IMG/VR virus record: IMGVR_UViG_3300042988_001200
DNA from: a virus
Taxonomy: Duplodnaviria > Caudoviricetes
Length of the DNA stretch: 64,000 bases
Strand: one strand, 5' to 3'
The position numbers and the translations under genes were made by a program. This document shows, one piece after another, positions 724 through 60,047 of the stretch (positions are counted from its first letter, which is position 1; every line of letters starts with the position of its first letter). Under the pieces are notes generated by a model, which saw nothing but the letters and a program-made list of their open reading frames with translations, made no database searches and had not been told where the DNA came from.

Positions 724-1833
724 TGATTTTATATAACTAAGATTAAAATCTAGACCTATATAACTTTGGCTAATATAACCTATATCAGATATTCCACTAA
801 CTATAGGAGCTCTACAATCATCTTCACTGTAGATTTCTATAGTTTTTATTAATTTAGGGGGAATAGGTATTGTACTAGGAGGTCTGTAATTAATAGAAAA
901 TTTAGATAAACTAAAGGGATTGTCTCTTAGAAAAATATCTAGTTTATAAGAGTTACCTATAGTCTCTATAAAAGCATAACCTCCTAGACTTCTAACTAAG
1001 AAATATATGTCTTTCATTAACTTTTCACTCTTTACTTTTATACTTATACCACCCCCATTATGAACATTTATATATCCTCCACTATCTATAATTCCTCTTA
1101 ATATTTCTAATCTATTATTAAAAGAAGTAAATAAGTAACTTTTATGGATATATCTATAACAAGGATTAGAATATAGTAAACCTAAATTCTCTAAATCAAT
1201 GCTTAATTGACTTCTTTTATTTATATTAAATAGACTTCTAAAAGAGTATATTTCTTCCTCTAAAGAACTTGGTTTATCAATTATAAAATGTTGTCTTTCT
1301 CCTACACATCTATTATTCATAGAATTCTTTAGTTCTTCTGTTAGTTTAATTAAAGGTTCCTTCTGTTCTAAGATTCCTTTAATAGTTATTACTCCTATCC
1401 AGTATGGGGGTAAAGAACAAAGATTATTACTTTGTAGTTCAAATGGAAAATCTACAGCTCTTACTTCTAAAGCTCCATTAAAAGAAGTTGTATTAATAGA
1501 ACAAGAGTTATAACAACATACATAATTTAAATCTCTTACATAATAGTCAGACCTTTGTACTACACTTCTTAAGTATTCAATAGATTTAAGTTCATAATTA
1601 TTATTAGAGTTATAGATTCTAGTAGGTAATAGATGAGAGTCTGATACTATAAGCTGAGTCCCATCAGAGAATGTTACTTTATATAAAGGATTAATAGAAT
1701 TAGAAAACTTAGTTATGCTATATGTGGAAGTTCTATTGTTCTGATATATAAGAACTTTATTACTAATAGCCAAATCACTCACTTTATATAAAGAGGAAGG
1801 AGTTAATAAAATAGTATCTTTATAAAAACACAT
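718..1833 (-). mobile_element. free-standing intein-like protein (HINT + LAGLIDADG homing endonuclease)
   Basis: M-C-F start (block A CFYKDTILLT), block B FSDGTQLIVSDSH, LAGLIDADG block LRGIIDSGG, block H KLMKDIYFLVRSLG, block F-like IKTIEIY. Canonical HN terminus absent. Confidence 0.8.
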
Positions 1834-1894
1834 AATAGATATAAATAAGAATTATATCTAGTATAAGTAAATTAAATTATAAGAAAGTAAACAT

Positions 1895-2611
1895 ATGCCT
1901 AGACCTTTAAAGGTATCAGAAAAAGGGGCGCCCTTAACCTGTGCTGAGCATGATGAAAACATAAATAGGTTATTAGATAGAAGTAACCATACTGGCACTC
2001 AATCAGCTAGCACTATACATGATTTAGCTGTATATCTAGCTAACTCCAGTTCCTTATCTGGATTAACCACTCAATTAACTAATCTACAAAGTTTAGTCTC
2101 TTCTTTACAGGATGATGTACTAGCTCCTGGGGGTCATGTAAATTCTTTAATATCTCAATTACAATCAGCTTACACCTCGGCTGATAATCTTATTAATAAT
2201 AGACTTAATAGTTATGAAGCTAGAATCACAGGTCTAGAGACAGGTCATAGTAATCAACAAGGATTAATAGATAATCTTAATCAAAGAGTTAATACTCTAA
2301 CTACTGACACAGCCACTAATACTCAGGCTATTGATGCTTTGGATACTCAAGTATCTACTCTATCTTCCTTATTGGGAGGTAATGATGTCTCTGGAATGAT
2401 AGGGGATATTTCAGCTATTATGGATATACTTCAACCTGTTATAGATGGAGACTCATTTATAGTTCCATCCCCTCCTAATAATAATGATGGTCTTATATTT
2501 GGATGGGACTCTACCTCCTCTACTCCTATATGGAGATTCCCTGATAATATTAATGGAGGAGATTTAGTAGACCCAACAGGTACTGTTAGATTAAACCTAA
2601 GTTCTAATTAA
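1895..2611 (+). CDS. coiled-coil virion fibre protein
   Basis: N-terminal KGAPLTCAEHDEN and DRSNHTGTQSAS motifs typical of phage fibres; long heptad region. Confidence 0.6.
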   Translation: MPRPLKVSEKGAPLTCAEHDENINRLLDRSNHTGTQSASTIHDLAVYLANSSSLSGLTTQLTNLQSLVSSLQDDVLAPGGHVNSLISQLQSAYTSADNLINNRLNSYEARITGLETGHSNQQGLIDNLNQRVNTLTTDTATNTQAIDALDTQVSTLSSLLGGNDVSGMIGDISAIMDILQPVIDGDSFIVPSPPNNNDGLIFGWDSTSSTPIWRFPDNINGGDLVDPTGTVRLNLSSN

Positions 2612-2632
2612 CACTCTTTTATATAAATATAT

Positions 2633-5131: not shown

Positions 5132-5170
5132 TGGTAATAGATATAGTTCTTTTTTTTATTGTAATTTAAT

Positions 5171-6202
5171 ATGAGTAATTTCCCCTCTCAGGCTCCCCCT
5201 AATCAATATAATGCTATAACTGGTGAAACTTATAAGTTTCAATCAGCTACTTTAGAAGCAGACCACCCACCTATTAATGATAGTAGTAATAAAGTAGCTA
5301 CTACTGGATGGATACAGAGCTTAATATCTGGAATTCCAATGTGGCCTACTACTTCAGATGCTACAGGAGGTACTGGTCTCCTTATTACTGTTAGTGATGG
5401 TGTAGTTAATAACTTATCAGGGGGCGCTTGTAATATTTCAGCTTCTGTAGCTCCTATAGCTGTTAATGCTAACTCTCAGGAGTATGTCTATGTTAGATTT
5501 AGTGATTGTCAAATTGTTGTATCCACAACACTTCCAAATCCTTCTATAGGTTATGTTATTTCATTGGTTACTACTAATGCTAATAAAATAATAAGTATAA
5601 TTAATTATTCTTCTATTAATTCATTTGCATCTACTATAAGCCCTATATTTACTGGTAATCCACAGGCTCCTACCCCTCCTCTCGGAGACTGTGATAACTC
5701 TATAGCTACTACAGAGTTTGTATGTCAGGCTATACAAGAATTCACTTCTAGTAGTCCTACTTTTACTGGAGACCCTAAAGCTCCTACAGCTCCCCCAGGT
5801 GATTGTGATAACTCTATAGCTACTACAGAATTTGTATGTCAAGCTATATCAAACCTCACCAATCAAATCTCTTATCCTCAGATAATAGATAAAGGGGGAT
5901 TAAATATAAATGTGACTGCTGGGGAGGTTCCTAAACCAGGGGGTTCTATGTGTAATATTACACCTCTACCCTCGGATTTAGGTATTAACCCTTCAACTAT
6001 TGAATACATTTATGTTAGATATAGTGATTGTAGAGTGGTAGCTAGTACATCTCAACCCCTTAATACAGTAGGTTTTATTCTAGGGACTATAGCAACAAAT
6101 GCTACTTCTATTACTCAAATAAGTCAACATGCACCCACTCTCCAATCCTCTTTACTCTCTAAGTTTAAAGTAGGTTTTGGAGGTAATCTAATAATGATTT
6201 AA
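5171..6202 (+). CDS. tail fibre protein, paralogue of the 2633-5131 C-terminal half
   Basis: Shares SPxFTGNPQAPT-GDCDNSIATTEFVC repeats, YxxVRFSDC modules and the C-terminal KVGFGG motif. Confidence 0.75.
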   Translation: MSNFPSQAPPNQYNAITGETYKFQSATLEADHPPINDSSNKVATTGWIQSLISGIPMWPTTSDATGGTGLLITVSDGVVNNLSGGACNISASVAPIAVNANSQEYVYVRFSDCQIVVSTTLPNPSIGYVISLVTTNANKIISIINYSSINSFASTISPIFTGNPQAPTPPLGDCDNSIATTEFVCQAIQEFTSSSPTFTGDPKAPTAPPGDCDNSIATTEFVCQAISNLTNQISYPQIIDKGGLNINVTAGEVPKPGGSMCNITPLPSDLGINPSTIEYIYVRYSDCRVVASTSQPLNTVGFILGTIATNATSITQISQHAPTLQSSLLSKFKVGFGGNLIMI

Positions 6203-6209
6203 TTACTAT

Positions 6210-7337
6210 ATGAGTAAAGAAATATGGCCTATAGTTGTTCAATCTGGGGATTTAGGCGTTGTATCTACAGAAGGTAGATTAAATCCTACTATAGAAGTTC
6301 CTTCTAATATCTATCCTCTAGCTCTAAAGGAAGGGACCTCCTCCTCTAATAATATTGAATATTTATATATAAGATTCTCTGATGGTAAACTTGTAGCTTC
6401 TTCCTATGAACCTGATACTAATGCTGGTAAGGTTGTAGCTATAGCTGAGACTGATACTGATTCTATTGTTAGGATTACTAGTACAGAACCCTCTTTTGAA
6501 TTAGAACCAGAAGTAAAGGTCCTGGCCTTATGTGATACTGTATACAATAGACAAGTAGCTACTCAAGGGTGGGTTAGAAATGAGATAGGCAAGTATATAG
6601 ATAAGAACACACTATTCCCTCAATTACTAAGTTATGATGGATTATATGATAACCAATTAGCTACTACTGAATGGGTTAGAAGTGAGATTATTAAGTTCCT
6701 GGGTTATACCTTTACTGTAATAATTGATACCCCATCTTCCTTATTTTGGAATGAAGGGGAGGTTATTATTAACAATCAACCTTATATAGTACCTCAAGGA
6801 ACCCACTCCTTTGATTTATCCTATAATGGAACCTACTATATTTATGTAACTCTAGACTCTAATACTGTGTCAGTAGAGATAACTTCAGACCCAGAACCAT
6901 CATTTGTTGGTACTAGAATAGGGACTTTAGTTATTAATTTAGGGGTAATTCATTCCTACCAAACTCATCCTAAAGAGGTGCAATCCCCCCCAGTTATACC
7001 TTTAGGGGACTGTAGTTCTACTAATATGACTACTGAATGGATGATTAATACTTGGTTTAGAATGGCATTTGGTATAGAATCTCCTTTAATATCAGTCTCA
7101 GATTATAAGACTATTCTTCATTGGAATAATGGTAGAGTTAGATATCAGGCTTATAGTCAACTAATTAATAGTGGTAGTGCTAATGTAGTTACCTTAGCTG
7201 ATGGAGTTTATAAACTAGTAAGTAGATTAAATGAAACAAACCTATTCTTAGTATCTAATAAACAATATAATGAAATAGAACTAGCTTCTATCATTATAGA
7301 AAATCAACAATTGAAATCAATTTATCCAATAATATAA
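6210..7337 (+). CDS. tail fibre-related protein, divergent paralogue
   Basis: YLYIRFSDGKLVAS module and three ATxxW repeats. Confidence 0.65.
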   Translation: MSKEIWPIVVQSGDLGVVSTEGRLNPTIEVPSNIYPLALKEGTSSSNNIEYLYIRFSDGKLVASSYEPDTNAGKVVAIAETDTDSIVRITSTEPSFELEPEVKVLALCDTVYNRQVATQGWVRNEIGKYIDKNTLFPQLLSYDGLYDNQLATTEWVRSEIIKFLGYTFTVIIDTPSSLFWNEGEVIINNQPYIVPQGTHSFDLSYNGTYYIYVTLDSNTVSVEITSDPEPSFVGTRIGTLVINLGVIHSYQTHPKEVQSPPVIPLGDCSSTNMTTEWMINTWFRMAFGIESPLISVSDYKTILHWNNGRVRYQAYSQLINSGSANVVTLADGVYKLVSRLNETNLFLVSNKQYNEIELASIIIENQQLKSIYPII

Positions 7338-7346
7338 TAAATATTT

Positions 7347-9659
7347 ATGCCTTTTCCTATTCCTAATACTGATGAACTTGATTGGTCTATTCCTTTAAAG
7401 AATCATTTAGGACAACTAAATGACCCTGATACTGGGGGTTTTAATGTATGGACTATTACTACTAGACCAACTAATTTAAGCTCTGATAATGTAAATTACA
7501 CAGGGTTTAATTCTCAAACTGGTAAATTTGAGAGATGGGATGGAAGTAAATGGGAAGAGTTTTCTACTCTTTCTTCCTATCCAGATAATTTATTTAGAAC
7601 TGGTACAGGTACTGTTACAGTTAATGATTATATAGTTACAGGTACTGGCACTCTCTTTACTACTGAACTAAAACCTGGGTGTTCTATTGTTATAAATACT
7701 CATAAAAGAATAGTAGCTAAAATAAACTCTAATACTGAATTAGAAATAAACCAACCTATTCTTTTTAATACTATAACTGCTACTTCTACTATTACTACAG
7801 ATGGAGTAAAAATAACTTCTTCAGCTTTACCTTCTATAACTGTTGGTTCCTTTTTAATTATTAGAAATCAATATGTTCAACTAATTAGTAAAAATGGAAC
7901 TACAGGGATTATAAGTCAACCTTTAGTACAGGCTGGGGCTGTTGGAGTAAATCCAATATTAAATGTAGTAAATGAGTCTTTCTCTTATATTTCTGTTTCT
8001 ACTAACACCCCCCAAACCTTTAAATATGATTTACCTATTCTTTCTTTAAAAGGAAGTAATACTAGCGTTACTAGTTCAGATAGAGGTAACTTATCAATTG
8101 GTACTCCTTTATCCTCTAATTTATTAGAGATAAACCAACCTATATTTGTAGCAGGAACTGGTACAATAACTTCCCAGCATTGTTTATTAAGCGGAGTTGG
8201 TACTCAATTTCTTACTCAATTAAATGTAGGAGATACTATCTATACAACTATAAATACTGATGTTCAACCTCTTTATTCTTCAACTCTTAAATACACTAAT
8301 AGAGGGGTTGTAACAGCTTCTTCTATAGTAGTTTCTGTTATTAATAATACTTCTTGTATTATATCTAGACCTTTTAATGCTCATGTACCCTTAGCCACTT
8401 CTAGTTTCTTTATAAAAAAAAGAAATGCTAGTTTTACTATTTGGGACTCTGAAATTGGTTTAAACTCTTCTACAGAGGAACTTTTACCTATAGGAGAAGA
8501 CGCCTCTATAGAGGATTTTACTTCTTCTATAAGGGGTAGAACGGCTCTAGTAGAATTAAATAATACTACATACACTCCCGCTAGAACTTTTTTTATTACA
8601 GACTCTAGTAAGGATTTAGGTGAACAAATAAGAGCATATCTATTACTATATCCCTCAGTAAATATTATCCTTCTTAAGGATACTACTTATACTTGGAATA
8701 CCCAAGTAACTGTAAGTCAAAGCCAAAGTTTAGTTATTAGAACCCAAGATTATTCTAATGGATGGACTCCTACTAATGCAGCTACTATTAATATGAATAG
8801 AAATAGCACTATGGAGTATGTTCTTGGGGGTTCATATCCAGGAACAAGAAAAGTAGTAAGGAAATTAAATTTAGAAGGACCCTGTTATCTACTAGGAGTA
8901 AAAATAAATGAGTCCTCTAATGATAGTATGGCTGTGGGATTCTATACTGGAGACAATGCCATTATTAGTATTGGTAATGGTGGTAGTTTATTTATTAATG
9001 GTTTATCTATTTCCAGTACACAAACTATTATTAATTTCTACTCTAGAAATGAACCAGGGAGTGTTTATATTCTCTGGTCTACTATTGATAAATCCTTACT
9101 AGCTTCTTCTGATATATATGCTGTTGATAGCTATACTGGGTGGAGCGGCTTTAACCTAGGAGGTTCTTATACAGAAGGTACTTCTTTAAGAATTGGTACA
9201 GGATTAGCTGGAGGTACTACTGGAGGTGTCCTATTTAGAGATGCTTCTAATATTATTTATAATAATGTTAGACCTCTTATTACTAAAACAGGTTCATTTG
9301 GTATAGGAATAACTCCTACACAAAGATTACATGTTAATGGTAATGCTCTTATTAGTGGTACTGTTACTTCTGGTTCTGATATTAGATGGAAAGAAAATAT
9401 TAAGGAGATAAACAGTGCTATAGAAGAAATTAATAAAATTAAGACTTATACTTTTAATTGGAAAGATAAAGAGAATAAAGGGAAGGAACTACAAGCTGGA
9501 GTGATAGCTCAAGAGCTAGAGAATACAGCTTTATCCCATCTAGTTTTAGAAGATAACGAAGGATATAAAAGTGTGTCTTATACTGGTATAATTGCTTATT
9601 TAGTTCAAGCTATTAAGGAACTAAATGAAAAACTAACAAACCTAGAGAATAATAAATAA
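7347..9659 (+). CDS. tail fibre/spike with C-terminal peptidase S74 intramolecular chaperone
   Basis: GTGT...GTLFTTEL repeats; C-terminal SDIRWKENIKEI...GVIAQELE...VSYTGIIAYLVQAIKEL. Confidence 0.85.
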   Translation: MPFPIPNTDELDWSIPLKNHLGQLNDPDTGGFNVWTITTRPTNLSSDNVNYTGFNSQTGKFERWDGSKWEEFSTLSSYPDNLFRTGTGTVTVNDYIVTGTGTLFTTELKPGCSIVINTHKRIVAKINSNTELEINQPILFNTITATSTITTDGVKITSSALPSITVGSFLIIRNQYVQLISKNGTTGIISQPLVQAGAVGVNPILNVVNESFSYISVSTNTPQTFKYDLPILSLKGSNTSVTSSDRGNLSIGTPLSSNLLEINQPIFVAGTGTITSQHCLLSGVGTQFLTQLNVGDTIYTTINTDVQPLYSSTLKYTNRGVVTASSIVVSVINNTSCIISRPFNAHVPLATSSFFIKKRNASFTIWDSEIGLNSSTEELLPIGEDASIEDFTSSIRGRTALVELNNTTYTPARTFFITDSSKDLGEQIRAYLLLYPSVNIILLKDTTYTWNTQVTVSQSQSLVIRTQDYSNGWTPTNAATINMNRNSTMEYVLGGSYPGTRKVVRKLNLEGPCYLLGVKINESSNDSMAVGFYTGDNAIISIGNGGSLFINGLSISSTQTIINFYSRNEPGSVYILWSTIDKSLLASSDIYAVDSYTGWSGFNLGGSYTEGTSLRIGTGLAGGTTGGVLFRDASNIIYNNVRPLITKTGSFGIGITPTQRLHVNGNALISGTVTSGSDIRWKENIKEINSAIEEINKIKTYTFNWKDKENKGKELQAGVIAQELENTALSHLVLEDNEGYKSVSYTGIIAYLVQAIKELNEKLTNLENNK

Positions 9660-10649: not shown

Positions 10650-10827
10650 ATATTAAACACTCCTGCATACTTGGATTCATTGTACATAAATATTCTAACC
10701 TATTTTGTTTGGGTAGTTTAGAGAGATATGCAGCATACTCCTCTACAATATCCCAGTCACATGCTAGATTAGATGCTCTAGCCTTCTCTAATAACATAGC
10801 CATCTTTGTATTCTTCATCTTCATCAT
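10639..10827 (-). CDS. hypothetical protein
   Basis: 62-aa ORF with AAGGAG RBS. Confidence 0.5.
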   Translation of the reverse strand: MMKMKNTKMAMLLEKARASNLACDWDIVEEYAAYLSKLPKQNRLEYLCTMNPSMQECLIYDI

Positions 10828-32991: not shown

Positions 32992-35250
32992 CTAATTGGA
33001 TGAATGATATATATGTATTTCTTTATCTTTTATGGTTATATATAAGGTAGATATATCTAAATGAGTAAGAATATAATCTACAAGTAGGTCTTTAATAGAA
33101 TTAACTATCCTTCCAATTTCTCTTGCTCCATAATTAAGGTTAATTTTACATGTTATTAAATGGGTGATAACCGAGGGTTCTATCTCTAATTTATACTTAA
33201 TAGCCTCCTTTAACTCTTCTAATCTAAGAGCCATAATAGAAGATAAGGATATTAGATTTAATGGATTAGCCGGTAGAATCTCATCTATTCTATTAAGGAA
33301 CTCTGGTGTAAAGTATTCTTTAAGAACACTTAACTTATTAGAACTAATATTGGAAGTAGATAGTTCAAACCCCAAAGATGCCGAGTTAGAATAAGAACTC
33401 CCTATATTAGTAGTTAAAAAGATGTATGAATTGTTAAAGTATATCTTTCTACCTACAGAATCTGTAACAAACCCCTCATCTAGTATTTGTAATAGAACAT
33501 TATAAATAGAGGGATGGGCCTTTTCTATCTCATCAAATAGGATGATACAGAAGGGGTAGTTCTTTACATTAGAGAAGATAAAAGATTGGTTTTCATAACC
33601 AATATACCCAGGAGGAGAGCCTATAAGTTTAGATATAGAGTGAGATTCCTGAAACTCTGACATATCTATTTGGATAAACTGAGCAGGGTTAGATAGTAAT
33701 AACTTAGATAATTCTTTAACTATATAAGTTTTACCTACCCCTGTATTACCACATAGTAGGAATGAGCCTCTAGGCTTAAGTTTGGAATAAAGGAAACTTC
33801 TTTTAATACAAGAGGAGATTTTATTAATAATATCCTCTTGACCTACTACTCTTTTCCTTAGATTAGACTCTATATCCTTAAACTTATTGTAGGTATCTAA
33901 AGGGTTTTTATTAATAGGAACTTGAGTTATAGATTCTATAGTTTCATAAACTAAGGACTCATCTAACTCTGGAAGATTAACTATAAACTTCTGTACCTCT
34001 TCATACTTATCTTCTTCAATAAGAGAATAATACTCCTTTAAATGTTTATTAGGGGTTTTATTCTTTATCTTTAACTTACTACCAGCCTCATCTAGTACAT
34101 CTATAGCTTTATCTGGATAGTTCCTATTTGTTATATATTGACTGCTATTAACTATTACCTTAAGGATAGAGTCAGGTACTATCATTCCATGATATCTCTC
34201 GTACTTAGTTCTATTTCCTCTAAGAATCTCTAGAGTCTCTTCCTTACTACATTCTTCTAGAGGGATAATATTAAACCTTCTAGTAAAGGCTTTATCCTTT
34301 TCTATATTTAATTTAAACTCCCTATAGGTAGTAGCACCTATACATTTTAATTCACCTCTACTAAGGGCAGGCTTAAGTAGATTAGATAAATCTAAGGAAC
34401 CCTCATAGTTACCTAGACCTACAATATTATGAATCTCATCTATAAAGAGAATAACGCTAGGATTAGACTTACAGTATTTAATAAGTAGAGCTACTCTCTC
34501 TTCTAACTCCCCTCTAAACTTAGTACCAGATATTAAAGCTCCAGTATCTAAAGATACAATTCTAGTATTGTCTAAAGGAGGGTATATTCCAGATACTACT
34601 AATTGAGCTAATCCCTCTACTAACTGAGTCTTACCAAAGCCAGCTTCCCCTAGTATAAGAATATTACTCTTAGTCTTTCTTAATAAAGATTTAACTATAG
34701 AGTCTAGTTCTTTAGTTCTACCTATTAGGGGATCTAGTTCATTCTTCTCAGCTTTTAGAGTTAAATCAATACAGAAGTCTTCAATAGATGTAGGAATAGA
34801 GCTAGATACAGTAGTAACTAATAAGCCTTCTTGTAGAAGAGTAACAATCTGTTCTTCTATAGCCTTAATATCTACATTAGAGGTAAAGGCTTTTTCAAAG
34901 AAGGATAGATTATTATTACTTTTAAGTACATGAACAAGGGCTAAGAATATAGACTCAGGTTCTATATGCTCTAGATTAAATCTGTTACTTATTTCCTCTG
35001 CTTGTTTTAGACATATATGTATATACTTAGAATATTGATTAGGGAAAGGATTAAAATTTATTCCTGGAATATTAATTAAATAATTAGTATCTAAGTTATT
35101 CTTCTTTAAAATGCTAGATATTTTAGAAGACCCTTCTTGTAATAATCCTATAAGTAAATGGTTAAAGCTAACAGAGGTGTTTTGACTATTAGCAATACTC
35201 TTAGCTATACTAAGAACCTTATCAGAACCTTGAGATAGATTTAGAGACAT
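32992..35250 (-). CDS. clpC: ClpC-like AAA+ unfoldase (start probably MSLNL at 35250)
   Basis: Clp N-domain; LDPLIGRTKE; GEAGFGKT/ILFIDEIH; PDKAIDVLDEAGS; GNTGVGKT/LFDEIEKAHP; LGF ClpP-docking loop; YGAREI. Confidence 0.93.
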   Translation of the reverse strand: MSLNLSQGSDKVLSIAKSIANSQNTSVSFNHLLIGLLQEGSSKISSILKKNNLDTNYLINIPGINFNPFPNQYSKYIHICLKQAEEISNRFNLEHIEPESIFLALVHVLKSNNNLSFFEKAFTSNVDIKAIEEQIVTLLQEGLLVTTVSSSIPTSIEDFCIDLTLKAEKNELDPLIGRTKELDSIVKSLLRKTKSNILILGEAGFGKTQLVEGLAQLVVSGIYPPLDNTRIVSLDTGALISGTKFRGELEERVALLIKYCKSNPSVILFIDEIHNIVGLGNYEGSLDLSNLLKPALSRGELKCIGATTYREFKLNIEKDKAFTRRFNIIPLEECSKEETLEILRGNRTKYERYHGMIVPDSILKVIVNSSQYITNRNYPDKAIDVLDEAGSKLKIKNKTPNKHLKEYYSLIEEDKYEEVQKFIVNLPELDESLVYETIESITQVPINKNPLDTYNKFKDIESNLRKRVVGQEDIINKISSCIKRSFLYSKLKPRGSFLLCGNTGVGKTYIVKELSKLLLSNPAQFIQIDMSEFQESHSISKLIGSPPGYIGYENQSFIFSNVKNYPFCIILFDEIEKAHPSIYNVLLQILDEGFVTDSVGRKIYFNNSYIFLTTNIGSSYSNSASLGFELSTSNISSNKLSVLKEYFTPEFLNRIDEILPANPLNLISLSSIMALRLEELKEAIKYKLEIEPSVITHLITCKINLNYGAREIGRIVNSIKDLLVDYILTHLDISTLYITIKDKEIHIYHSSN

Positions 35251-37298
35251 AGGGATAATAAATCTTCTGGATAGAAACAACTAGATAAACTTAGATTAAC
35301 CCCATATAGTTCATCACATAAAGGGATTAGTAATATAGAACCTGGCTTATGAATAGTATTAGTTATTTCATTTATTACTATTTTAATATTAAAACTATTA
35401 AGCACCCTTATGATTTCTGGATTGTTTATTTCTAATATGCAATATAAGAGTTGAGACATTACAGCTATCTCTATTATGAAATTTCTATTATTAGCCTCAT
35501 GGTTAGAAGTAATTATCTTAATGAAATCCACTTTAGATATATTTATAGAATTATTTATATTAGTAAAATCTTCTATATCTATATCTTGGTTATTTATAAA
35601 CTCATCTATATGCTCATATATAGATATAAGGGATAAAAGCCCTTCACAGATAGACTCTAACTCTTTGTATGAGTCTATATAGAGATTCTGTGTAGCTCTA
35701 GTTAAAGCTACATATATTAGATTTAGCTCCTGAATATGGTCATTATATTTATTAGTTGGTCTAAATAGAATATCTGCTGAAGGAACTATATACCAGACAT
35801 TCTTTGCTTCTGCTCCTTTAGCTCTATGGATAGAACTAAGAATAATAGCATTCTTACTTGGTTTACATAATTCCTCTACATATTTCTCTATATAGGAGAC
35901 ATCTATGTTCTCTTTTATGTATAAATATATATACTCTATTAAACTATTACAACAATTAAAGTAGTCTATTAAAGTATCTAAACTAATAGTAAATAGTTCT
36001 TTAGAACTTGTATTATTCTGTTTTATACAATCGTGATTATACTTATAGAAACCACTTAATAAGTTCTTATACTCATTTAAAGAGTACGTTTTATAGTCTT
36101 GTAACTTGTTATACTCTAAAGCTAGTCTAAAGAATCTACTAATAGAGATACTTAAATCTGTACATCTTATATATATCTTCTTACCTTTTGATAATAGTTC
36201 TAAGCCATATTCTACTAATGGATAGTTATATCTACTAACAATAAGGTCTTTACTCTTTACTTTATTAACTATAAATTCTTTATTAAAGCCTTTTACTACA
36301 CTCCCTTGTTTAGGGTTAGCGGGTAGCATTTCTATCTTAACTAGTTCTTTAACTAGTTCTATATGACTATCTGGACATCTATAACAATATGAAAGGGGGA
36401 GTTGAATAGTATTAAAGCTCTCTTTCATAATCTTCCAAATAGAAGGTTCAGCTCCTGCAAATGCAAATATAGACTGGTTATAGTCTCCTAATAATATGAT
36501 TTGACTACCATTATTAGTAAATTTCTTATATATCTCTAACATTAATAGAGAGGAATCCTGAGCTTCATCTACTATTAGATAGTCTGTGTGAGTTGGTTCT
36601 AGGTTTAAATCAATAGAAAGTTCTAGTAATTGAGTGAAGTCTAGGATTTTATTATTAGCTTGAGTCCTTCTTAATTGACTAATATATCTAATACATTTAC
36701 ATATAAATTTAATATAAGGATTTATATATTCTAACTTTAAGCCATATTTATATATAACAAAGTAGATGTTTTCATAGGTTATAGTTAATCTATTTATTCT
36801 TAGATAGTTATCTATTTGTTTAGTTGCTTGTTTAAATATATTAATATGAACATTAATATCCTTTCTTTCTTGTTTAGTTATATTAGAAGAAGGGTCTATT
36901 CTTTCCTTTGTATATATATAACTATAAAGTTCTTGATTTAAAGATTCATCTTTAAGGAAGGAATTAACGAACTCTGAAGTCCTATCTTGAATATCTATAT
37001 CACCTAATACCCTTTTTAATAACCCATAACATAGACTATGGATAGTATTTATCCTTACATTATTTAATCCTTTAATCCTTGTATCCTCTTTTAACTGTTC
37101 AGCTATATGTTTATTAAAAGCTAGAATCTGTATCTTTTTACCGCCTAAAGCTCCACATAGACCTATGATTTGAGTAGTTTTACCTACTCCTGCATTAGCA
37201 TTGACTTGAATATTATTGGTTAAAGCCTCTTGAAATATAGTTAATTGATGACTATTCCAATTAATAGCAGTTAGATAATTAGAAGTCCAATTATTCAT
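35241..37298 (-). CDS. UvrD/Rep-like superfamily 1 helicase
   Basis: ANAGVGKTT, LAFNK, TIHSL, IVDEAQD, GDYNQSIFAFAGA, LSYCYRCP, SSIHRAKGAE, YVALTRA. Confidence 0.92.
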   Translation of the reverse strand: MNNWTSNYLTAINWNSHQLTIFQEALTNNIQVNANAGVGKTTQIIGLCGALGGKKIQILAFNKHIAEQLKEDTRIKGLNNVRINTIHSLCYGLLKRVLGDIDIQDRTSEFVNSFLKDESLNQELYSYIYTKERIDPSSNITKQERKDINVHINIFKQATKQIDNYLRINRLTITYENIYFVIYKYGLKLEYINPYIKFICKCIRYISQLRRTQANNKILDFTQLLELSIDLNLEPTHTDYLIVDEAQDSSLLMLEIYKKFTNNGSQIILLGDYNQSIFAFAGAEPSIWKIMKESFNTIQLPLSYCYRCPDSHIELVKELVKIEMLPANPKQGSVVKGFNKEFIVNKVKSKDLIVSRYNYPLVEYGLELLSKGKKIYIRCTDLSISISRFFRLALEYNKLQDYKTYSLNEYKNLLSGFYKYNHDCIKQNNTSSKELFTISLDTLIDYFNCCNSLIEYIYLYIKENIDVSYIEKYVEELCKPSKNAIILSSIHRAKGAEAKNVWYIVPSADILFRPTNKYNDHIQELNLIYVALTRATQNLYIDSYKELESICEGLLSLISIYEHIDEFINNQDIDIEDFTNINNSINISKVDFIKIITSNHEANNRNFIIEIAVMSQLLYCILEINNPEIIRVLNSFNIKIVINEITNTIHKPGSILLIPLCDELYGVNLSLSSCFYPEDLLSLCL

Positions 37299-42986: not shown

Positions 42987-43715
42987 ATGATTTATATAAT
43001 TCCTATAGTCTTCTTTCTTATATATGTATGTACTTTTTATTTATTAGATAAAAGGGATAAGGAGCCAATATCTCTTGTGTTATCTATTTGTATATATGGA
43101 GCTTTTTCTGCTTTATTTGTATGTAGATATATACTTCCAGGAGCTAATTTATTTAATATCTCTTTTGTAGAAGAGACTATAAAGTTTATTATTGTTATAA
43201 TTCTATTTCACTCTCTGTCTAAATATGTAAATAACTCTTTTGATTTAATTGTTTATTCATGTTATTCCGCTTTAGGTTTTTCTATAGCGGAATCTCTTTA
43301 TTATTTATATCTAAACCCTAGTCTCTCATTGGCTTTATCTAGGTCTATATTTAGCGTTCTTCATTGTATATGGACAACTATATGTGCTTATGGTTTCTCT
43401 ATATCTGTATCTTTATCTAATCCTATATTCTCTATAGTAGGCATTACTCTTGCTATATTCCTTCATACTCTACATAACTACTTAGCCCTCTTTTCCTTTA
43501 ATTATATATATATCTTTTTCTTTATACTTCAAGTATTTGCTTTATTTATTATATTTAATAATCTAATAAGTAGAGAGATTAAAATTATATCTCTTTATAA
43601 ATCTAAGGACTTATCTAACTCACATATATTAGAAATATATGAGTTAGAACAAAAGAATAAATATATAACTTCTAGATTGAAATATCTATATGCCCTTACC
43701 AAATCCCTCCACTGA
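42987..43715 (+). CDS. PrsW-family intramembrane glutamic protease
   Basis: DKRDKEP, VEETIKF (EExxK), ALGFSIAES (FxxxE), SVLH, IFLHTLHN; multiple TMs. Confidence 0.85.
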   Translation: MIYIIPIVFFLIYVCTFYLLDKRDKEPISLVLSICIYGAFSALFVCRYILPGANLFNISFVEETIKFIIVIILFHSLSKYVNNSFDLIVYSCYSALGFSIAESLYYLYLNPSLSLALSRSIFSVLHCIWTTICAYGFSISVSLSNPIFSIVGITLAIFLHTLHNYLALFSFNYIYIFFFILQVFALFIIFNNLISREIKIISLYKSKDLSNSHILEIYELEQKNKYITSRLKYLYALTKSLH

Positions 43716-50713: not shown

Positions 50714-51142
50714 TTACATAGGGGGGAAGTATTCTTTATCTGCTTTAAATGCTACTTGTTTATTATCTAATGAGCAAAATTCATCATTACAACCTTCATT
50801 TTCATTTACCCAATTAGATATAAAAGTTACTTCTTCTGGAGAATTAATGTTAATTTCTTTACCTAAATACCACCACTTTCCCTCCACCTTAATAATAGTA
50901 ATGGTCTTTTTATCTAAGGATTCTTCATTAAATTCATAGCTATTTACTAGTTTAGAGTTCTTTAATATACTATCTAACCTATCTTTATATTTAGGTTCTA
51001 GAGAAAGTATTACTTCTTTACTTGTATGAAAAAGTTCATCTTTATTAATAAACTGTAAATTCTCTAATAGAATTATTAAAGAATATAAAGAGGAAATACC
51101 TCTTCTAGTCTTAATCTTTACTTGCATATGTCTATTCCTCAA
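50714..51142 (-). CDS. hypothetical protein (last gene of the Ubl cassette transcript)
   Basis: 142-aa ORF with CxxxxC near the C-terminus. Confidence 0.55.
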   Translation of the reverse strand: MRNRHMQVKIKTRRGISSLYSLIILLENLQFINKDELFHTSKEVILSLEPKYKDRLDSILKNSKLVNSYEFNEESLDKKTITIIKVEGKWWYLGKEININSPEEVTFISNWVNENEGCNDEFCSLDNKQVAFKADKEYFPPM

Positions 51143-51437
51143 TAGGGTTTACTTCAGATAAAGGAGTGGTTAACTCTTTATATACTTTATCAACTTTAGG
51201 GTTCTTATTATATTTAAAACCTTTAAGAGCTTTAGTTAAATTAATTATTTCCTCTTCTTGAAAACTCTTAATATTAACTGTCTTACCTCCAAATGTATAT
51301 TTACCTAACTTCCTATCCCAAGCATCCTCTAGAGCTTTATCTACTTTAGAGGATTCATTATTTAATTCCTTAACAGAGAACCTTTGTAAAGCCTTATTTT
51401 CTGCACTATTACTCTTAGATTTATTAGTCTTAGACAT
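51132..51437 (-). CDS. hypothetical protein
   Basis: 101 aa; strong AAAGGAG RBS inside the E1 3' end. Confidence 0.6.
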   Translation of the reverse strand: MSKTNKSKSNSAENKALQRFSVKELNNESSKVDKALEDAWDRKLGKYTFGGKTVNIKSFQEEEIINLTKALKGFKYNKNPKVDKVYKELTTPLSEVNPIEE

Positions 51438-51448
51438 CTATTTCTCCT

Positions 51449-52144
51449 TTATTTAATATCTAAATGAACTTTATCTAAACTATTAACTACTCCTTTATTA
51501 ATATCAAAAGACATTAGTTCATAGAAGTAACCATTAATAATATTATACAGAGTATTAAGCGTGAGGGAAGCTGCCATTAAATTAGCACAGATAATCTGAG
51601 TATTAGTCTCCTTTTGTAATGAACATCCCCTATCTCCAGGAATCCTATCTGTAGGTTTATTAAGACTAGGATATAACTCTAGGGGATTGGTTCCTATGGA
51701 TTTACCATTTATATAAGCCCAGGTTATTACTTGTCCATAATCTAACTCATTACCAGGAGTAATGAATATAACATCTCTATTAGACTCAGATATAGCTTCT
51801 ATAACAGCTTTTCTACTAGCCTGATTATCTACACAAGCTATACAAAGGGTTAAAACACCAGAGTCTCTATTACTTAGAATATTAGAGTATACCTTTTTAT
51901 TAACATAAGTTATATGTGAATAACAAGATATATCTAAATCTAATATCTCTTTTTGTAATGGATTAACTTTATTAAATGAAATGCTAGAAGGAAAGAAACC
52001 CTGTCTTTCTATATTATTCTCCTCTACTTTATCTGCATCATATAAATGAACTTCTATATAGTTCATGTACTTTTTTAATAGTTTAGCCATTGGTATAGCT
52101 AAATAAGAGCCGGTTCCACCACATCCAATAAGGTCTACAAACAT
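51449..52144 (-). CDS. ThiF/E1-like ubiquitin-like-protein activating enzyme
   Basis: GCGGTGS, DADKVEENNIERQ, NKV, CVDN, GNELDYGQV, catalytic Cys in RGCS, NLMAA. Confidence 0.9.
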   Translation of the reverse strand: MFVDLIGCGGTGSYLAIPMAKLLKKYMNYIEVHLYDADKVEENNIERQGFFPSSISFNKVNPLQKEILDLDISCYSHITYVNKKVYSNILSNRDSGVLTLCIACVDNQASRKAVIEAISESNRDVIFITPGNELDYGQVITWAYINGKSIGTNPLELYPSLNKPTDRIPGDRGCSLQKETNTQIICANLMAASLTLNTLYNIINGYFYELMSFDINKGVVNSLDKVHLDIK

Positions 52145-52171
52145 GTTTACTCTCTTAATATGAAAGGAAGA

Positions 52172-52209
52172 TAGAGTTTAGTATCTATAAAGGTAAATAC
52201 TAAACTCTA
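52172..52209 (-). terminator. 13-bp stem-loop between the Ubl and E1 genes
   Basis: TAGAGTTTAGTAT-12 nt-ATACTAAACTCTA, followed on the minus strand by TCTTCCTTTC. Confidence 0.65.
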
Positions 52210-52215
52210 GGTTCA

Positions 52216-52623
52216 TTAGGCTTTAACAGCTACTTTTGTATATAAAGTATAGGTAGCTCCCACTTTAACGGGTTGAGACTTGTCCTTTACAATGACTCCA
52301 TCCTCCTTTATATTGACAATATTATCCTCAAAGTAAAGAGATTCTGATGCTTTCTCAATTAAATCCTCAATGGTAAGACCCTCTACTTCTTCTATATCAT
52401 ATTGGATTTGTTCTCCTAATGAAAAGGTGACAGTAGTTACAGTAGTCTTAGAGGTAGATTCTTCCATTCTAGAGGAAGAAATATTATCAACCATTACCTC
52501 CATTTCTTCATTAGAAATAGGTTTATCTAATGAGATAACTTCTGGATTAGTGTCTTTTAAAGAAGAATCTAGTTTATTTAGTAGAGAAACGGTCTTTTGA
52601 ATAATAGTTTTAACGATGCTCAT
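52216..52623 (-). CDS. ubiquitin-like (beta-grasp) protein with N-terminal extension
   Basis: C-terminal ~75 aa: TTVTFSLGEQIQYDI...GLTIEDLIEKA...IVNIKEDG...VKVGATYTLYTKVAVKA; lies between JAB and E1; start MSIVK at 52623. Confidence 0.65.
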   Translation of the reverse strand: MSIVKTIIQKTVSLLNKLDSSLKDTNPEVISLDKPISNEEMEVMVDNISSSRMEESTSKTTVTTVTFSLGEQIQYDIEEVEGLTIEDLIEKASESLYFEDNIVNIKEDGVIVKDKSQPVKVGATYTLYTKVAVKA

Positions 52624-52624
52624 A

Positions 52625-53455
52625 TCAATACTCCACAAATTTATACTGGTTATCTAACAACAAATCTTCTATGTCAAATAAGGCTATACTTCCATATTTA
52701 TTCTCCATTAACTTAAGAAAAGTGTCTAAATCCTTCTTTAACTCTGGATTAATAGTCCTAGATTGAGTCTTAAAGATGAAGGTATTAATAGGTTTACTAG
52801 GCTTATTTCCTTTAATAAAAGTAGTTGTTAAAGGATTAACTAGCTGTTTATATAGAGGAGAAATGCTTATATTAGGAATATAAGTCTCTTCTATTGGTAA
52901 TAAAAGTAATGGATTAGATACAATAAACCTTCTATTGAACTTAGTAATAGAAGGTAGAACTGAATAATTATTGTCCTTTATAGAGTGGATAAGTATATGA
53001 AACCCGGGGGATTTAAGCTCTGAATCATCATCTATAGAAGAAAAATCTCCTTTAATACCAGTAGGATGTAGATGACTATCTCCTACCATTATATAATTAT
53101 CACTGGTGTAATCCTCTAATAAAGCCTCGGATTCTATATCAAATGCTTTAAAACTTAGTCTAGTAGTAGAAGAAAGAGTGACTTGCTGCTCTGGAATTAC
53201 AATTCTCCACTTATCTAACTCTTGATTATATAGAATAACTGAGCTTATTTCTAGACTTAAGGAGTTATATTCCTTAAAAATAGATACCATTCTATGCCAT
53301 AAATCTAGAGGAATCTTATTAATAGGAGGTACTAATGTAAAGAGTTCTACTACTTGGTCATCTAAACCATCAGGGTCTTCTATCTTTCTATAACAAGTTC
53401 CCCAATATGAACTATCTAATTTATAACTACCTAGAGTCTTAGTCTTTATATACAT
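52625..53455 (-). CDS. JAB/MPN+ metallopeptidase (deconjugase)
   Basis: LEISSVILY (Glu), WRIVIPEQQVT, GDSHLHP...FSSIDD (HxH-x7-SxxD). Confidence 0.88.
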   Translation of the reverse strand: MYIKTKTLGSYKLDSSYWGTCYRKIEDPDGLDDQVVELFTLVPPINKIPLDLWHRMVSIFKEYNSLSLEISSVILYNQELDKWRIVIPEQQVTLSSTTRLSFKAFDIESEALLEDYTSDNYIMVGDSHLHPTGIKGDFSSIDDDSELKSPGFHILIHSIKDNNYSVLPSITKFNRRFIVSNPLLLLPIEETYIPNISISPLYKQLVNPLTTTFIKGNKPSKPINTFIFKTQSRTINPELKKDLDTFLKLMENKYGSIALFDIEDLLLDNQYKFVEY

Positions 53456-54220
53456 CTATTCCTCTTCATCTTTATACTCATCTTCTGAATCATAGTCATC
53501 CTCTTCAGTATTTGTATAATCCTCTAACTTCTCCCATTCTATTGTTAAGGATTCATCAGACTTATATGCTTCATATTTAGTAAATATTTTCTCTAGAATA
53601 GCTTCTAAAGAGTCAATATCATTAAAGCCATCTAAATTAAATAGACTATCCCAGTAGATATCGTATAACTCTTTATGAGTGTATTCATCTATATCTATAT
53701 TATCACCAAAGCATATCTGATTATCTGCCATTCTATTGGGTAATGGAAGAAAGTAATATTCGCCTCTTATACAAGTAGTTATATAGAACTTACTTTCTCC
53801 AGATTCTTTATCATCTAAATACCAGAACTCATGTATAGGTAATCTAAATTCTATAGTTGTAATAATATCTTCTGGTTCTAGTTTTCTACATTTACCCTCT
53901 AATACAAATGAAATATCTCTCTCATAGGATTCCTCTAGAGAACATATATAACTCTCTTTTTTTAATAGAGAGAACCTTGTATTTAAATCCTTTATATAGG
54001 GTTCTAATTTATTGATTAAAATCTCATCAATCTCATTAATTCTACAATAATTTCTAATTATCTTTAAATTTAAATCATTTATACTCTCTTTAAAGTTAAA
54101 CCAATTATTGAACTTACAGTATTTACATTCTTTGTTTTTAATATCTCCAGTATCTCTATTAATTATTTTAATAGTTTTTACTTGCTCTCTATAAATTTCT
54201 ATTAACTCAGGATTTGACAT
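53456..54220 (-). CDS. prokaryotic E2-like conjugating enzyme with acidic tail
   Basis: FRLPIHEF...YFLPLPNRMADNQICFG (catalytic Cys)...YWDSLFNLD; start MSNPEL at 54220. Confidence 0.75.
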   Translation of the reverse strand: MSNPELIEIYREQVKTIKIINRDTGDIKNKECKYCKFNNWFNFKESINDLNLKIIRNYCRINEIDEILINKLEPYIKDLNTRFSLLKKESYICSLEESYERDISFVLEGKCRKLEPEDIITTIEFRLPIHEFWYLDDKESGESKFYITTCIRGEYYFLPLPNRMADNQICFGDNIDIDEYTHKELYDIYWDSLFNLDGFNDIDSLEAILEKIFTKYEAYKSDESLTIEWEKLEDYTNTEEDDYDSEDEYKDEEE

Positions 54221-54238: not shown

Positions 54239-54266
54239 AGTAGGAGTTAGGGGTCTAACTCCTACT
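54239..54266 (-). terminator. intrinsic terminator after hli
   Basis: AGTAGGAGTTAG-4 nt-CTAACTCCTACT followed by GTTTT on the minus strand. Confidence 0.8.
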
Positions 54267-54275
54267 TTATACAAT

Positions 54276-54428
54276 TTAATGAACAATTATTAGCTTAATA
54301 AGATTACCAAATGGACCAGATAGAGTTACTAATTCTAAGAATAGTAGACTAATAAACCCTATCATTGCTAATCTTCCATTCACTAATTCAGCAGTATTAT
54401 CAAATATAAATCTAGGTTTAATCTTCAT
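54276..54428 (-). CDS. hli: high-light-inducible protein (Hli/SCP), not in ORF track
   Basis: Hand translation MKIKPRFIFDNTAELVNGRLAMIGFISLLFLELVTLSGPFGNLIKLIIVH; contains the AExxNGRxAMIGF chlorophyll-binding motif. Confidence 0.92.
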   Translation of the reverse strand: MKIKPRFIFDNTAELVNGRLAMIGFISLLFLELVTLSGPFGNLIKLIIVH

Positions 54429-54563: not shown

Positions 54564-54992
54564 CTAAACTCCTAGTTTACAGATAATAGAGGAAGGAATC
54601 TGGTAATTAATAAGAGTCTTTACAGTATTCCAATTACCCCCTCCTAGACCACAACCTATTTTATAAGGGATATAAACTTTAAGATTTAACTCTTGGGCTA
54701 TTTCATTAACTAACCCTAATCCTTTAGATAGAGCTTTATAGTCTGTATGTATCCCTGTATTACCATAGGTATTTTGCCCAATTAGAGATACTATTACTAG
54801 GCTCTCTATTCTAGTAGTAATAATATCTCCCATTTCTAGATTACCTACTTGTGATTTATAATCTATTTCTACTTGAGGATATTTAGTTTTAATGGATAAA
54901 GCTAGACCTTTACCCATTACTCCTTGTTTATTAACCTGATGGACGATGATTCCTTCTTTAATGTCTAAGATATTCTTCTCTATGATTTCCAT
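54564..54992 (-). CDS. macrodomain (Poa1/OARD1-like ADP-ribose hydrolase)
   Basis: IVHQVNKQGVMGKGLALSIK...TDYKAL...IPYKIGCGLGGGNW. Confidence 0.9.
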   Translation of the reverse strand: MEIIEKNILDIKEGIIVHQVNKQGVMGKGLALSIKTKYPQVEIDYKSQVGNLEMGDIITTRIESLVIVSLIGQNTYGNTGIHTDYKALSKGLGLVNEIAQELNLKVYIPYKIGCGLGGGNWNTVKTLINYQIPSSIICKLGV

Positions 54993-55324
54993 TAAAGACC
55001 TTTTATTAATTGGATATAACCTTTATTTAATTGAATATAGTTGTTTAGAATTGTATTTAGTAACTCTATAAGTTGCTCTTTAGAGGCTCTATCTATACAA
55101 CTTTCAAAGGTTTCTTTTATATCTTTATCTTCAGTATTCTCATAGAATTTACCTATACTCTTAACAAAGTATATTATCTTTAGCTTCCTATTCTCTCTAT
55201 AATAGTTCTCTAAAGTCTCAATTACTAATTGTTTTAAATCCTCTCTATTAAGATTTCTGGCCTTTAAATTATATGAAGCAATCTTAAACTGCTCTTCTAA
55301 AGTGAGATTTAAGGTAGATTCCAT
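54992..55324 (-). CDS. nblA: phycobilisome degradation protein NblA, apparently two fused copies
   Basis: LNLTLEEQFKIASYNLKARNLNREDLKQLV matches NblA LSLEQQF...MSxEQ; the second half TFESCIDRASKEQLIELL...YIQLIK repeats the pattern. Confidence 0.75.
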   Translation of the reverse strand: MESTLNLTLEEQFKIASYNLKARNLNREDLKQLVIETLENYYRENRKLKIIYFVKSIGKFYENTEDKDIKETFESCIDRASKEQLIELLNTILNNYIQLNKGYIQLIKGL

Positions 55325-59474: not shown

Positions 59475-60047
59475 TTATGGGTTTTTACATGTTGAAATAA
59501 AGAACTTGGGAGATACTTCTCTTGTTAACCATACGGTTTTAGGCTTTGTCTCCCAAAATAATAACCCCTCCTCTTGCATTAATTTACTGTTAATACTAAC
59601 TATATAACTAGGTAAATTAACTTTTCTACCATTTCTATCTCCTATTTGTCTGGCTGATTCTCTCTTAGTAGAAAGGTGAACTAGATATCTGGATATAGGT
59701 AATATACCTTTTTCTTTTATATCTTTAACTCTATCTTCGGTTAATCCGTGATATAAAATAGGGGGTGGAGTTTTAGGTTTATCTAATATTGGATAAGGAA
59801 AACTATGACCATAACAAGCTCTAATAATAGTGTTATTCCTTTCAAATCTCTTATTATTCTTAATGAAACTGGTTATATCCTCACTAGTTATATCTTCTAA
59901 ACCTATAATCTCATTAATTAATTTAGTAACTTCTTGTACATTAAACCACCCTCCCTCATTAGTTTTATTACCACAGTGTCTTAATATATAACATAAAGAT
60001 TTAGATAACTTAGTTAATTTAGTTTTAGTAGCATCTTTAATTGTCAT
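59475..60047 (-). CDS. kptA: RNA 2'-phosphotransferase (Tpt1/KptA)
   Basis: KLSKSLCYILRH, GGWF, KRFE, IRACYGHS, ILYHG, GILPISRYLVHLS. Confidence 0.92.
   Translation of the reverse strand: MTIKDATKTKLTKLSKSLCYILRHCGNKTNEGGWFNVQEVTKLINEIIGLEDITSEDITSFIKNNKRFERNNTIIRACYGHSFPYPILDKPKTPPPILYHGLTEDRVKDIKEKGILPISRYLVHLSTKRESARQIGDRNGRKVNLPSYIVSINSKLMQEEGLLFWETKPKTVWLTREVSPKFFISTCKNP

Follow-up and report, generated by a model that had tools for sequence, protein, structure and literature searches.

A compact E1-E2-JAB-ubiquitin-like gene cassette in an uncultured phage is a diverged relative of the PRTRC and type 6d operons

Results and discussion

Organization of the cassette

The window analysed here is a 64,000-nucleotide (nt) stretch of viral DNA (IMG/VR record IMGVR_UViG_3300042988_001200), and our subject is a cassette of four co-directional, minus-strand genes at positions 51449-54220. 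In the order E2-JAB-Ubl-E1, the open reading frames (ORFs) specify an E2-like conjugating enzyme (E2; 53456..54220; 254 amino acids, aa), a JAB/JAMM metallopeptidase (JAB; 52625..53455; 276 aa), a ubiquitin-like protein (Ubl; 52216..52623; 135 aa) and a compact E1, or ThiF-family adenylating enzyme (51449..52144; 231 aa). An initial annotation made from the letters of the sequence had proposed that these genes form a complete ubiquitin-like conjugation set, and family alignments, profiles and structure models bear this out, with the catalytic residues of the enzymes intact. The catalytic motifs quoted in that annotation are real and coincide with invariant positions of the E1, E2 and JAB family alignments.

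The coordinates and gene junctions given earlier were all reproduced from the ORFs and the junction sequence: the TAG stop codon of the E2 gene abuts the ATG of the JAB gene, and the TGA of the JAB gene is followed by a single base and then the ATG of the Ubl gene. The E2 start codon, an ATG at 54220, agrees with the start of its homologue in L001, a related phage contig described below; alternative starts are a TTG at 54286 and that of a 272-aa product proposed by the gene caller. A spacer of 71 nt lies between the Ubl and E1 genes and contains a stem-loop on the minus strand (52172..52209), which was found by a terminator scan and consists of a 16-bp stem, a 6-nt loop and a T-rich tail, with a predicted RNA folding energy of -22.4 kcal/mol.

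E1 is the sole cassette protein recognized directly by Pfam. The other three, which gave no Pfam, PADLOC, PHROG or NCBIfam match worth the name, were assigned through relatives, profiles and structure models.

The four genes are inherited together in shuffled order

All four genes occur on L001, a 20-kb contig, in the order JAB-Ubl-E2-E1, with BLASTP identities to the window of 60% for E1, 52% for JAB, 38% for Ubl and 32% for E2. Relatives of E1 at 31-41% identity led to four further phage-like contigs (L011-L014), whose partner genes were recovered by iterative search of their ORFs. L013 is arranged as Ubl-JAB-E2-E1 and L014 as Ubl-JAB-E2-(E2-like)-E1; L012 has two cassettes, one of which reads Ubl-JAB-E1-E2 with a second E2-like gene; and L011 has E2-JAB-E1, with no Ubl found in its ORFs. 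The full set of four thus recurs, variously arranged, in at least four other phage-like contigs (L001, L012, L013 and L014). Retention of the set despite rearrangement is good evidence of a joint function for the four genes.

Related genes were also reached in three cultured phages. Salmonella phage Arash (OQ632216, L009) carries at 1519-4539 an E2-like protein (gp248c), a JAB that passes Pfam Prok-JAB (gp247c) and an E1 that matches Pfam ThiF (gp246c). Vibrio phage D69 has an E2-JAB-E1 cluster that includes 0304, a weak match to Prok-E2_D, and 0303, a Prok-JAB protein. Ralstonia phage Dina (NC_055026) is annotated with a full PRTRC system (E, C, F, B, A and ThiF), PRTRC standing for ParB-Related, ThiF-Related Cassette, and iterative search reaches its B and A proteins. 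Against a set of 50,697 phage records, neither the cassette DNA nor a tblastn search with JAB gave a match, and scans of IMG/VR with E1 alone and with alignments of E1 and JAB gave none.

Two features of gene content were seen in these contigs. The two E1/E2/JAB cassettes of L012, a 14-kb contig, lie at 36-1603 and 4786-8313, and in both L012 and L014 (3014-5998) an extra E2-like paralogue stands beside the first E2.

The E2-like enzyme

E2 gave no direct match to Pfam, PADLOC or NCBIfam models. A word-based search of 5.8 billion proteins returned E2 itself and, at most, one spurious repeat protein, and a full HMMER search of 1.84 billion representatives returned at most E2 itself, the L001 homologue and a spurious repeat protein. 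Its family was reached through an intermediate: the window E2 matches that of L012 (phmmer, 4.7e-8; hhalign, 92.9%, E 3.7e-7), and the L012 protein passes the Pfam Prok-E2_D model (PF14460) with 27.8 bits against a cut-off of 25. A profile of nine E2 sequences aligns across the catalytic stretch with PRTRC_B of phage Dina (E 1.3e-4, 53.8%), although BLASTP of the window E2 against the same protein gave no alignment. By feature search in the ESM Atlas, E2 scored 0.94 to viral Prok-E2_D clusters.

The UBC-like core comprises residues ~1-20 and 115-235. A motif LPLPN-x7-C-FG holds Asn162 and Cys170, which together with F194 and N195 are invariant in the family alignment. When the 177,635 sequences of the PDB were searched, the top match was Rad6, with its HPN motif and catalytic Cys aligned (E 0.6). 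An AlphaFold2 (AF2) model built from a two-sequence alignment was unusable (confidence score, pLDDT, 36), whereas the nine-sequence alignment gave a model with a core pLDDT of 80-89 and a mean of 62.8. The closest solved folds to this model are UBC E2s, with UbcH5c at Z 5.1 and a root-mean-square deviation of 3.7 A over 102 residues; about 45 of the top 50 Foldseek rows against the PDB are E2s, none of them significant, and the top Atlas shape match is a Prok-E2_D cluster. The catalytic motif proposed for this gene in the initial annotation therefore stands, with N162 and C170 invariant, while the proposed fold has moderate backing from the model (UbcH5c at Z 5.1, no significant Foldseek match). 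We accept 53456-54220 as a probable E2, linked to Prok-E2_D by way of the L012 homologue.

The N-terminal insert of E2 contains a CxxC...C...C cluster (C32, C35, C93 and C111) that is kept only in the subclade of the window, L001 and L012 and is absent from the E2s of L013, L014, L011, Arash, D69 and Dina. This cluster may be a zinc site, perhaps for substrate recognition.

The JAB peptidase

JAB begins with an N-terminal alpha+beta domain (JAB-N-like), after which come E69, H128-x-H130 and S139-x-x-D142. These five residues, which make up the JAMM/MPN+ zinc site, are invariant in six relatives, and the motif aligns with the HSH...FS..D of PRTRC_A and of the Arash and D69 JABs. The window protein has no direct match to Pfam Prok-JAB or DUF2016 and scores 12.6 bits against TIGR03735, for which the cut-off is 101.8. 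A jackhmmer search started from it nevertheless reaches the JABs of Arash and D69, both of which pass Pfam Prok-JAB, and PRTRC_A of Dina, with which it aligns over the JAMM motif by hhalign (71%, E 3.6e-5). Weak PDB matches are to AMSH and Rpn11, and at TM-scores by hit of up to 0.73 the Atlas model resembles clusters of Prok-JAB and of 'PRTRC system protein A'. The Atlas matches and the complete, invariant motif support the JAB identity first suggested for this gene, and on alignment and model we assign 52625-53455 as a JAB/JAMM metallopeptidase.

The E1 adenylating enzyme

E1 matches Pfam ThiF at 1.1e-8 (35 bits; cut-off 28.1), and its best NCBIfam match is PRTRC_ThiF (TIGR03736) at 7e-19, with 68.1 bits, below the cut-off of 144.75. 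PADLOC gave weak matches to the E1 part of its 'E1-E2' models. The protein carries a GCGGTGS loop and a candidate catalytic Cys174, and the residues invariant in 11 family sequences are G7, G9, G10, D36, D38, N44, R47, Q48, K59, D106, R111 and C174. It thus has the Gly-rich ATP loop, the Asp/Arg-Gln/Lys/Asp ATP-Mg site and the Cys in the crossover region that are expected of a ThiF/E1 enzyme. Among PDB sequences, the family profile matches UBA5 at 3.8e-14 across nearly the whole adenylation domain, with Cys174 aligned to the UBA5 active-site Cys; a weak match of the window protein to the E1 domain of Cap2 was also found. As judged by alignment, E1 is a compact, UBA5-like member of the ThiF family.

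The same family also matches ThiF, MoeB, MccB and TcdA in the PDB, as well as NCBIfam ThiF models, and family Ubls give weak ThiS-like signals. Both observations would suit a chemistry of the ThiS/MoaD-ThiF or MccB type, limited to sulfur carriage or adenylation: E1 would activate the Ubl C-terminus, the resulting thiocarboxylate or modified peptide would serve, for example, in nucleoside or cofactor modification, and no protein would be tagged. We regard this as very unlikely: E1 always comes with a JAMM peptidase and an E2 whose Cys is invariant, no rhodanese, cysteine desulfurase, thiamine or molybdenum cofactor genes adjoin the cassette, and the best full-length match of E1 is UBA5, a true conjugation E1 whose catalytic Cys is aligned.

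The ubiquitin-like protein and its terminus

Residues 1 to ~60 of the Ubl form a helical, acidic extension and residues ~61-135 a predicted beta-grasp domain. The beta-grasp fold put forward in the initial annotation for 52216-52623 was found: the Atlas model of residues 61-135 resembles models of ubiquitin, SUMO, NEDD8 and ThiS at TM-scores by hit of 0.65-0.79, although the Atlas model is of low confidence (pLDDT 0.47 overall). By sequence, the protein has no Prok_Ub match in Pfam, and neither BLASTP nor profile comparison relates it to PRTRC_C of Dina. The extension is longest in the window, shorter in L001 and not alignable in the other relatives.

The window Ubl ends in ...VAVKA, that is, in Lys-Ala, with GCC as the last codon, and so lacks the C-terminal Gly, or Gly exposed by trimming, of ubiquitin-like modifiers. 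Its relatives end in KG (L001), KGV (L012), KGR (L013) and KGL (L014). Lys-Gly is thus the rule in the family, in some members hidden behind a single further residue that would be cut off by JAB, and the Ubl of this phage is an exception. The initial annotation does not mention the Lys-Ala end. The extra residue after KG in three of the four relatives suggests a trimming job for JAB. The same 135-aa Ubl gene product adjoins the JAB gene on contigs from three samples.

A stable stem-loop lies directly 3' of the Ubl gene in all five loci (the window and four relatives). In the relatives it is found at ~10764-10790 (L001), ~5083-5104 (L012), 3530-3645 (L013) and 1680-1820 (L014). The sequences of these stem-loops are unrelated, and the gene downstream varies between E1, E2 and JAB. 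The hairpin may act as a conserved attenuator or 3' stabiliser, fixing how much Ubl is made relative to the enzymes and raising Ubl over E1.

A predicted E1:Ubl complex

The initial annotation had suggested modelling of the E1:Ubl complex as a check, and contact was predicted. E1 with Ubl residues 58-135 scored an ipSAE of 0.63, against 0.00 for the best control; in calibration, 58 of 80 solved complexes and 2 of 110 mismatched pairs scored that high, counts that hold only roughly here because our own alignments were used. The Ubl partner had a pLDDT of 85, and contacts agreed between runs to at least 98%. In the model, the Ubl tail (residues 130-135) contacts the E1 glycine loop (residues 7 and 9-12), residues 103-108, which include D106, and residues 129-133. 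The modelled tail thus sits in the E1 adenylation site, in the geometry expected for adenylation of the C-terminus.

These results bear on whether the system has decayed or been repurposed in this phage, such that the change of Gly to Ala would block conjugation and leave a non-conjugating role, for example as a non-covalent Ubl scaffold acting through the extension. This is the only Ubl in the comparison without a terminal Gly, its GCC codon is one base from GGC, and the length of its extension would fit a new role. We nonetheless consider decay or repurposing improbable, since the catalytic residues of E1, E2 and JAB are all intact, the four frames are open and tightly coupled, the 135-aa gene was called on contigs from three samples, and in the complex model the Ala-ended tail still reaches the adenylation site. 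By analogy with ubiquitin G76A, conjugation activity of the Ala-ended Ubl is likely, though not certain.

Comparison with known systems

Operon type 6d combines a standalone E1, a helical protein, a JAB extended by an N-terminal domain, a small Ubl that ends in Gly, and an E2-like protein in which a Cys and, downstream of it, a His are conserved (PMC1779556). Type 6d of Iyer, Burroughs and Aravind (2006) is PRTRC in NCBIfam terms (TIGR03735-03742). In phage Dina, PRTRC B is Prok-E2_D, A is DUF2016 plus Prok-JAB, and C is Prok_Ub. The window cassette resembles this type in its small, standalone E1, its standalone E2, probably of the Prok-E2_D type, which keeps the Cys but lacks an HPN histidine, its JAB with an extra N-terminal domain, its small standalone Ubl and its carriage on mobile elements and phages. 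In contrast to PRTRC, no window protein reaches the NCBIfam cut-offs, relatives differ in gene order, and the Ubl has no Prok_Ub/PRTRC_C link, a 60-residue N-terminal extension and an Ala end; unlike type 6d, the E2 has a Cys-rich insert and an invariant Asn where 6d has its conserved downstream His. No ParB or PRTRC D, E or F was found by Pfam or NCBIfam among the neighbouring genes (hli, macrodomain, nblA and the 101-aa and 142-aa ORFs). Membership in PRTRC proper was rejected on the sub-cut-off scores, the lack of an adjacent ParB, D, E or F, and a Ubl that is not Prok_Ub and has no terminal Gly. The cassette represents a far-diverged branch of the PRTRC / operon type 6d kind, reduced to a minimum.

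Other systems were compared in turn. E1 resembles UBA5 in having its invariant Cys inside the adenylation domain and not in a separate Cys domain; unlike the UBA5-UFM1 system, the cassette has no UFC1-type E2 and no sequence similarity to UFM1, and the 231-aa E1 is shorter than UBA5 and lacks its C-terminal UIS/UBS region. The relationship is at the level of the ThiF superfamily only.

The bacterial Bil system (BilABCD) has separate Ubl, E2, JAB and E1 genes, a multi-domain E1 and predicted Cys thioester chemistry; Cap2 of CBASS is an E2-E1 fusion that conjugates a CD-NTase and not a Ubl; and Bub (6E/DUF6527) uses Ser/Tyr oxyesters and a DUF6527 protease (PMC11601596). The window cassette shares with Bil its four separate genes and predicted Cys thioester chemistry, but its E1 is a single 231-aa domain, its E2 is probably of the Prok-E2_D type and its owner is a phage and not the host. 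With CBASS Cap2/Cap3 and Bub it has in common E1, E2 and JAB-type modules of bacterial origin. Bil was rejected on the single-domain E1 and on PADLOC, which matched nothing to Ubl, E2 or JAB and matched E1 to 'E1-E2' models only. Cap2/Cap3 was set aside because the window genes are separate and no CD-NTase lies in or beside the cassette, and Bub because no DUF6527 lies in or beside it and a Cys is invariant in both E1 and E2. Thus, of the systems to which the genes were first likened, kinship holds for PRTRC/6d, at a distance, and fails on architecture for Bil, Bub and Cap2/Cap3.

Host Bil tags phage tail proteins, and CBASS uses E1-E2 conjugation (PMC11601596). The phage genes could then serve counter-defence, with JAB stripping conjugates made by host Bil or CBASS (Cap2), and the Ubl, E1 and E2 acting as decoys or competitors for the host machinery. 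The position of the cassette among the host-takeover genes hli, nblA and macrodomain is in keeping with such a role, and an Ala-ended Ubl could be a poor, trapping substrate. An eraser alone, however, needs only JAB, and here the full E1-E2-Ubl set with its catalytic Cys residues is co-inherited in relatives; moreover, the window proteins have no specific similarity to Bil or Cap3 (PADLOC gave weak E1 matches only), and the Ala terminus is specific to this phage and not to the family. A counter-defence function is, in our estimate, unlikely.

Ownership by a phage is less unusual than the initial annotation implied. Dina is annotated with PRTRC, Arash and D69 have E2-JAB-E1 clusters, and in the ESM Atlas Prok-E2_D or Prok-JAB turns up in many Uroviricota clusters. 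As the Dina annotation and the Atlas clusters already place such genes in phages, the window cassette is a variant of a known, uncharacterised class; it adds detail to that class and opens no new one. That functional studies of such phage cassettes are lacking, as was first supposed, agrees with our literature search, in which no paper on phage-encoded E1-E2-JAB-Ubl cassettes was found.

Proposed mechanism

At a probability of roughly 0.6, we favour a phage-owned module in which an E1-E2 thioester cascade would conjugate the beta-grasp Ubl to targets, with JAB acting as maturase and eraser. This reading is based on homology, on catalytic residues that are intact, on the joint inheritance of four genes whose order varies, and on the controlled E1:Ubl model; every chemical step, and any biological role, is inferred. 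E1 would bind the beta-grasp domain and thread the C-terminal tail of the Ubl into its ATP site, adenylate the terminal carboxylate and take the Ubl onto Cys174 as a thioester. The Ubl would then be handed to Cys170 of the Prok-E2_D-type E2, which would transfer it to a lysine of one or more targets. The JAMM peptidase may trim Ubl precursors, remove conjugates, or do both, and the hairpin behind the Ubl gene probably leaves more mRNA for Ubl than for the enzymes.

Several points weigh against this reading. The terminal Ala of the window Ubl departs from the Lys-Gly kept in four of the five family members. Ubiquitin G76A is still activated by E1, but less well. Taken together, these suggest that the window Ubl would be active, perhaps with reduced or altered activity. 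The complex model was built on our own shallow alignments, and its ipSAE may partly reflect memory of solved E1:Ubl complexes. Support for the E2 fold is middling, with a Foldseek E no better than 0.6 alongside the Z and mean pLDDT given above. No target, E3 or adaptor was identified, no RNA run was among those holding the stretch, and no biochemical work on any PRTRC-type system was found in the literature search.

Recent work on Bil and type II CBASS has shown that bacteria use Ubl conjugation as a weapon against phages, and here a phage owns equivalent machinery. At 231, 254, 276 and 135 aa for E1, E2, JAB and Ubl, this compact four-gene version is suited to reconstitution in E. coli. The natural variants of this clade would probe the chemistry: its Ubls end in KG, alone or followed by one more residue, or in KA; the Cys-rich insert of E2 is present in some and absent from others; and some loci have duplicated E2s or two cassettes. 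The related E2-JAB-E1 clusters of the cultured phages Arash and D69 make genetics possible.

Phage context and neighbouring genes

The window encodes several tail-fibre proteins, a terminase-like gene, a sigma factor, a class II ribonucleotide reductase, ThyX, and UvrD-type and DEAD-box helicases. Upstream of the cassette lie hli (54276-54428; PF00504, 23.1 bits), a macrodomain gene (54564-54992; PHROG 'phosphatase') and nblA (54992-55324). Further away are genes for a ClpC-like AAA+ ATPase (32992-35280), a PrsW-family intramembrane protease (42987-43715) and the RNA 2'-phosphotransferase Tpt1/KptA (59475-60047). These six, which are of host-takeover or stress type, occur together in one phage. 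Window proteins are found on a contig of at least 204 kb, and window DNA is present in freshwater, freshwater-sediment and subsurface metagenomes from three studies. Together, hli and nblA point to a cyanobacterial host, and the source is probably a large uncultured freshwater phage of cyanobacteria. Assignment of the cassette to the phage itself is upheld by the tail-fibre, terminase-like, sigma-factor, hli and nblA genes around it and by the recurrence of its neighbourhood in a related phage contig: L001 has in common with the window the helicase, Tpt1, macrodomain, hli and a 1644-aa convergent ORF.

The ClpC-like ATPase and NblA lend themselves to a more speculative proposal. During infection the phage could tag specific host proteins, such as those of the photosynthetic apparatus or of defence, for removal by its own ClpC-like unfoldase and NblA adaptor, and the Ala terminus would make the conjugates resist host erasers of the JAB/Cap3 type. 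We think this quite improbable; if true, the virus would be operating a degradation signal in the style of ubiquitin inside a bacterium.

A perfect 11-bp hairpin with TGTTTT behind it (54240-54265, minus strand) separates the stop codon of hli from the ATG of E2. It suggests that hli is transcribed apart from the cassette or that read-through from one to the other is attenuated. Directly behind E1, and possibly in the same operon, is a 101-aa gene (51132..51437, minus strand; jackhmmer match in the L001 ORFs, 1e-47), and the minus-strand block ends with a 142-aa ORF (50714..51142, minus strand; 137 aa by the gene caller; L001 match, 3e-73). Neither has a credible family match in Pfam, PHROG or NCBIfam, and neither gene of this pair (50714-51437) was found in the more distant cassettes L012-L014; they could be accessory factors or targets.

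The minus-strand block ends against a convergent 1652-aa ORF. The cassette had been described at first as converging on a fibre cluster, and for this gene the description is unsupported: the 1652-aa ORF has no Pfam or fibre family match, and a single weak match is to a PHROG family of unknown function. No resemblance was seen between it and the large convergent ORF adjoining the L012 cassette, and the opposite-strand neighbours of the Arash and D69 cassettes belong to no informative families. Because a recurring link to fibre or structural genes was thus unsupported among the neighbours in the window, L012, Arash and D69, the idea that the cassette modifies the virion was dropped.

At its contig end (85-1834), L001 carries an IS605 OrfB/TnpB-like gene and a resolvase, which are absent from the equivalent region of the window. 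In Arash (181 kb, cultured), on which no paper was found in the literature search, the label 'structural protein' is given both to E1 (gp246c) and to the E2-like gp248c; if it rests on virion proteomics, the Arash enzymes may be packaged.

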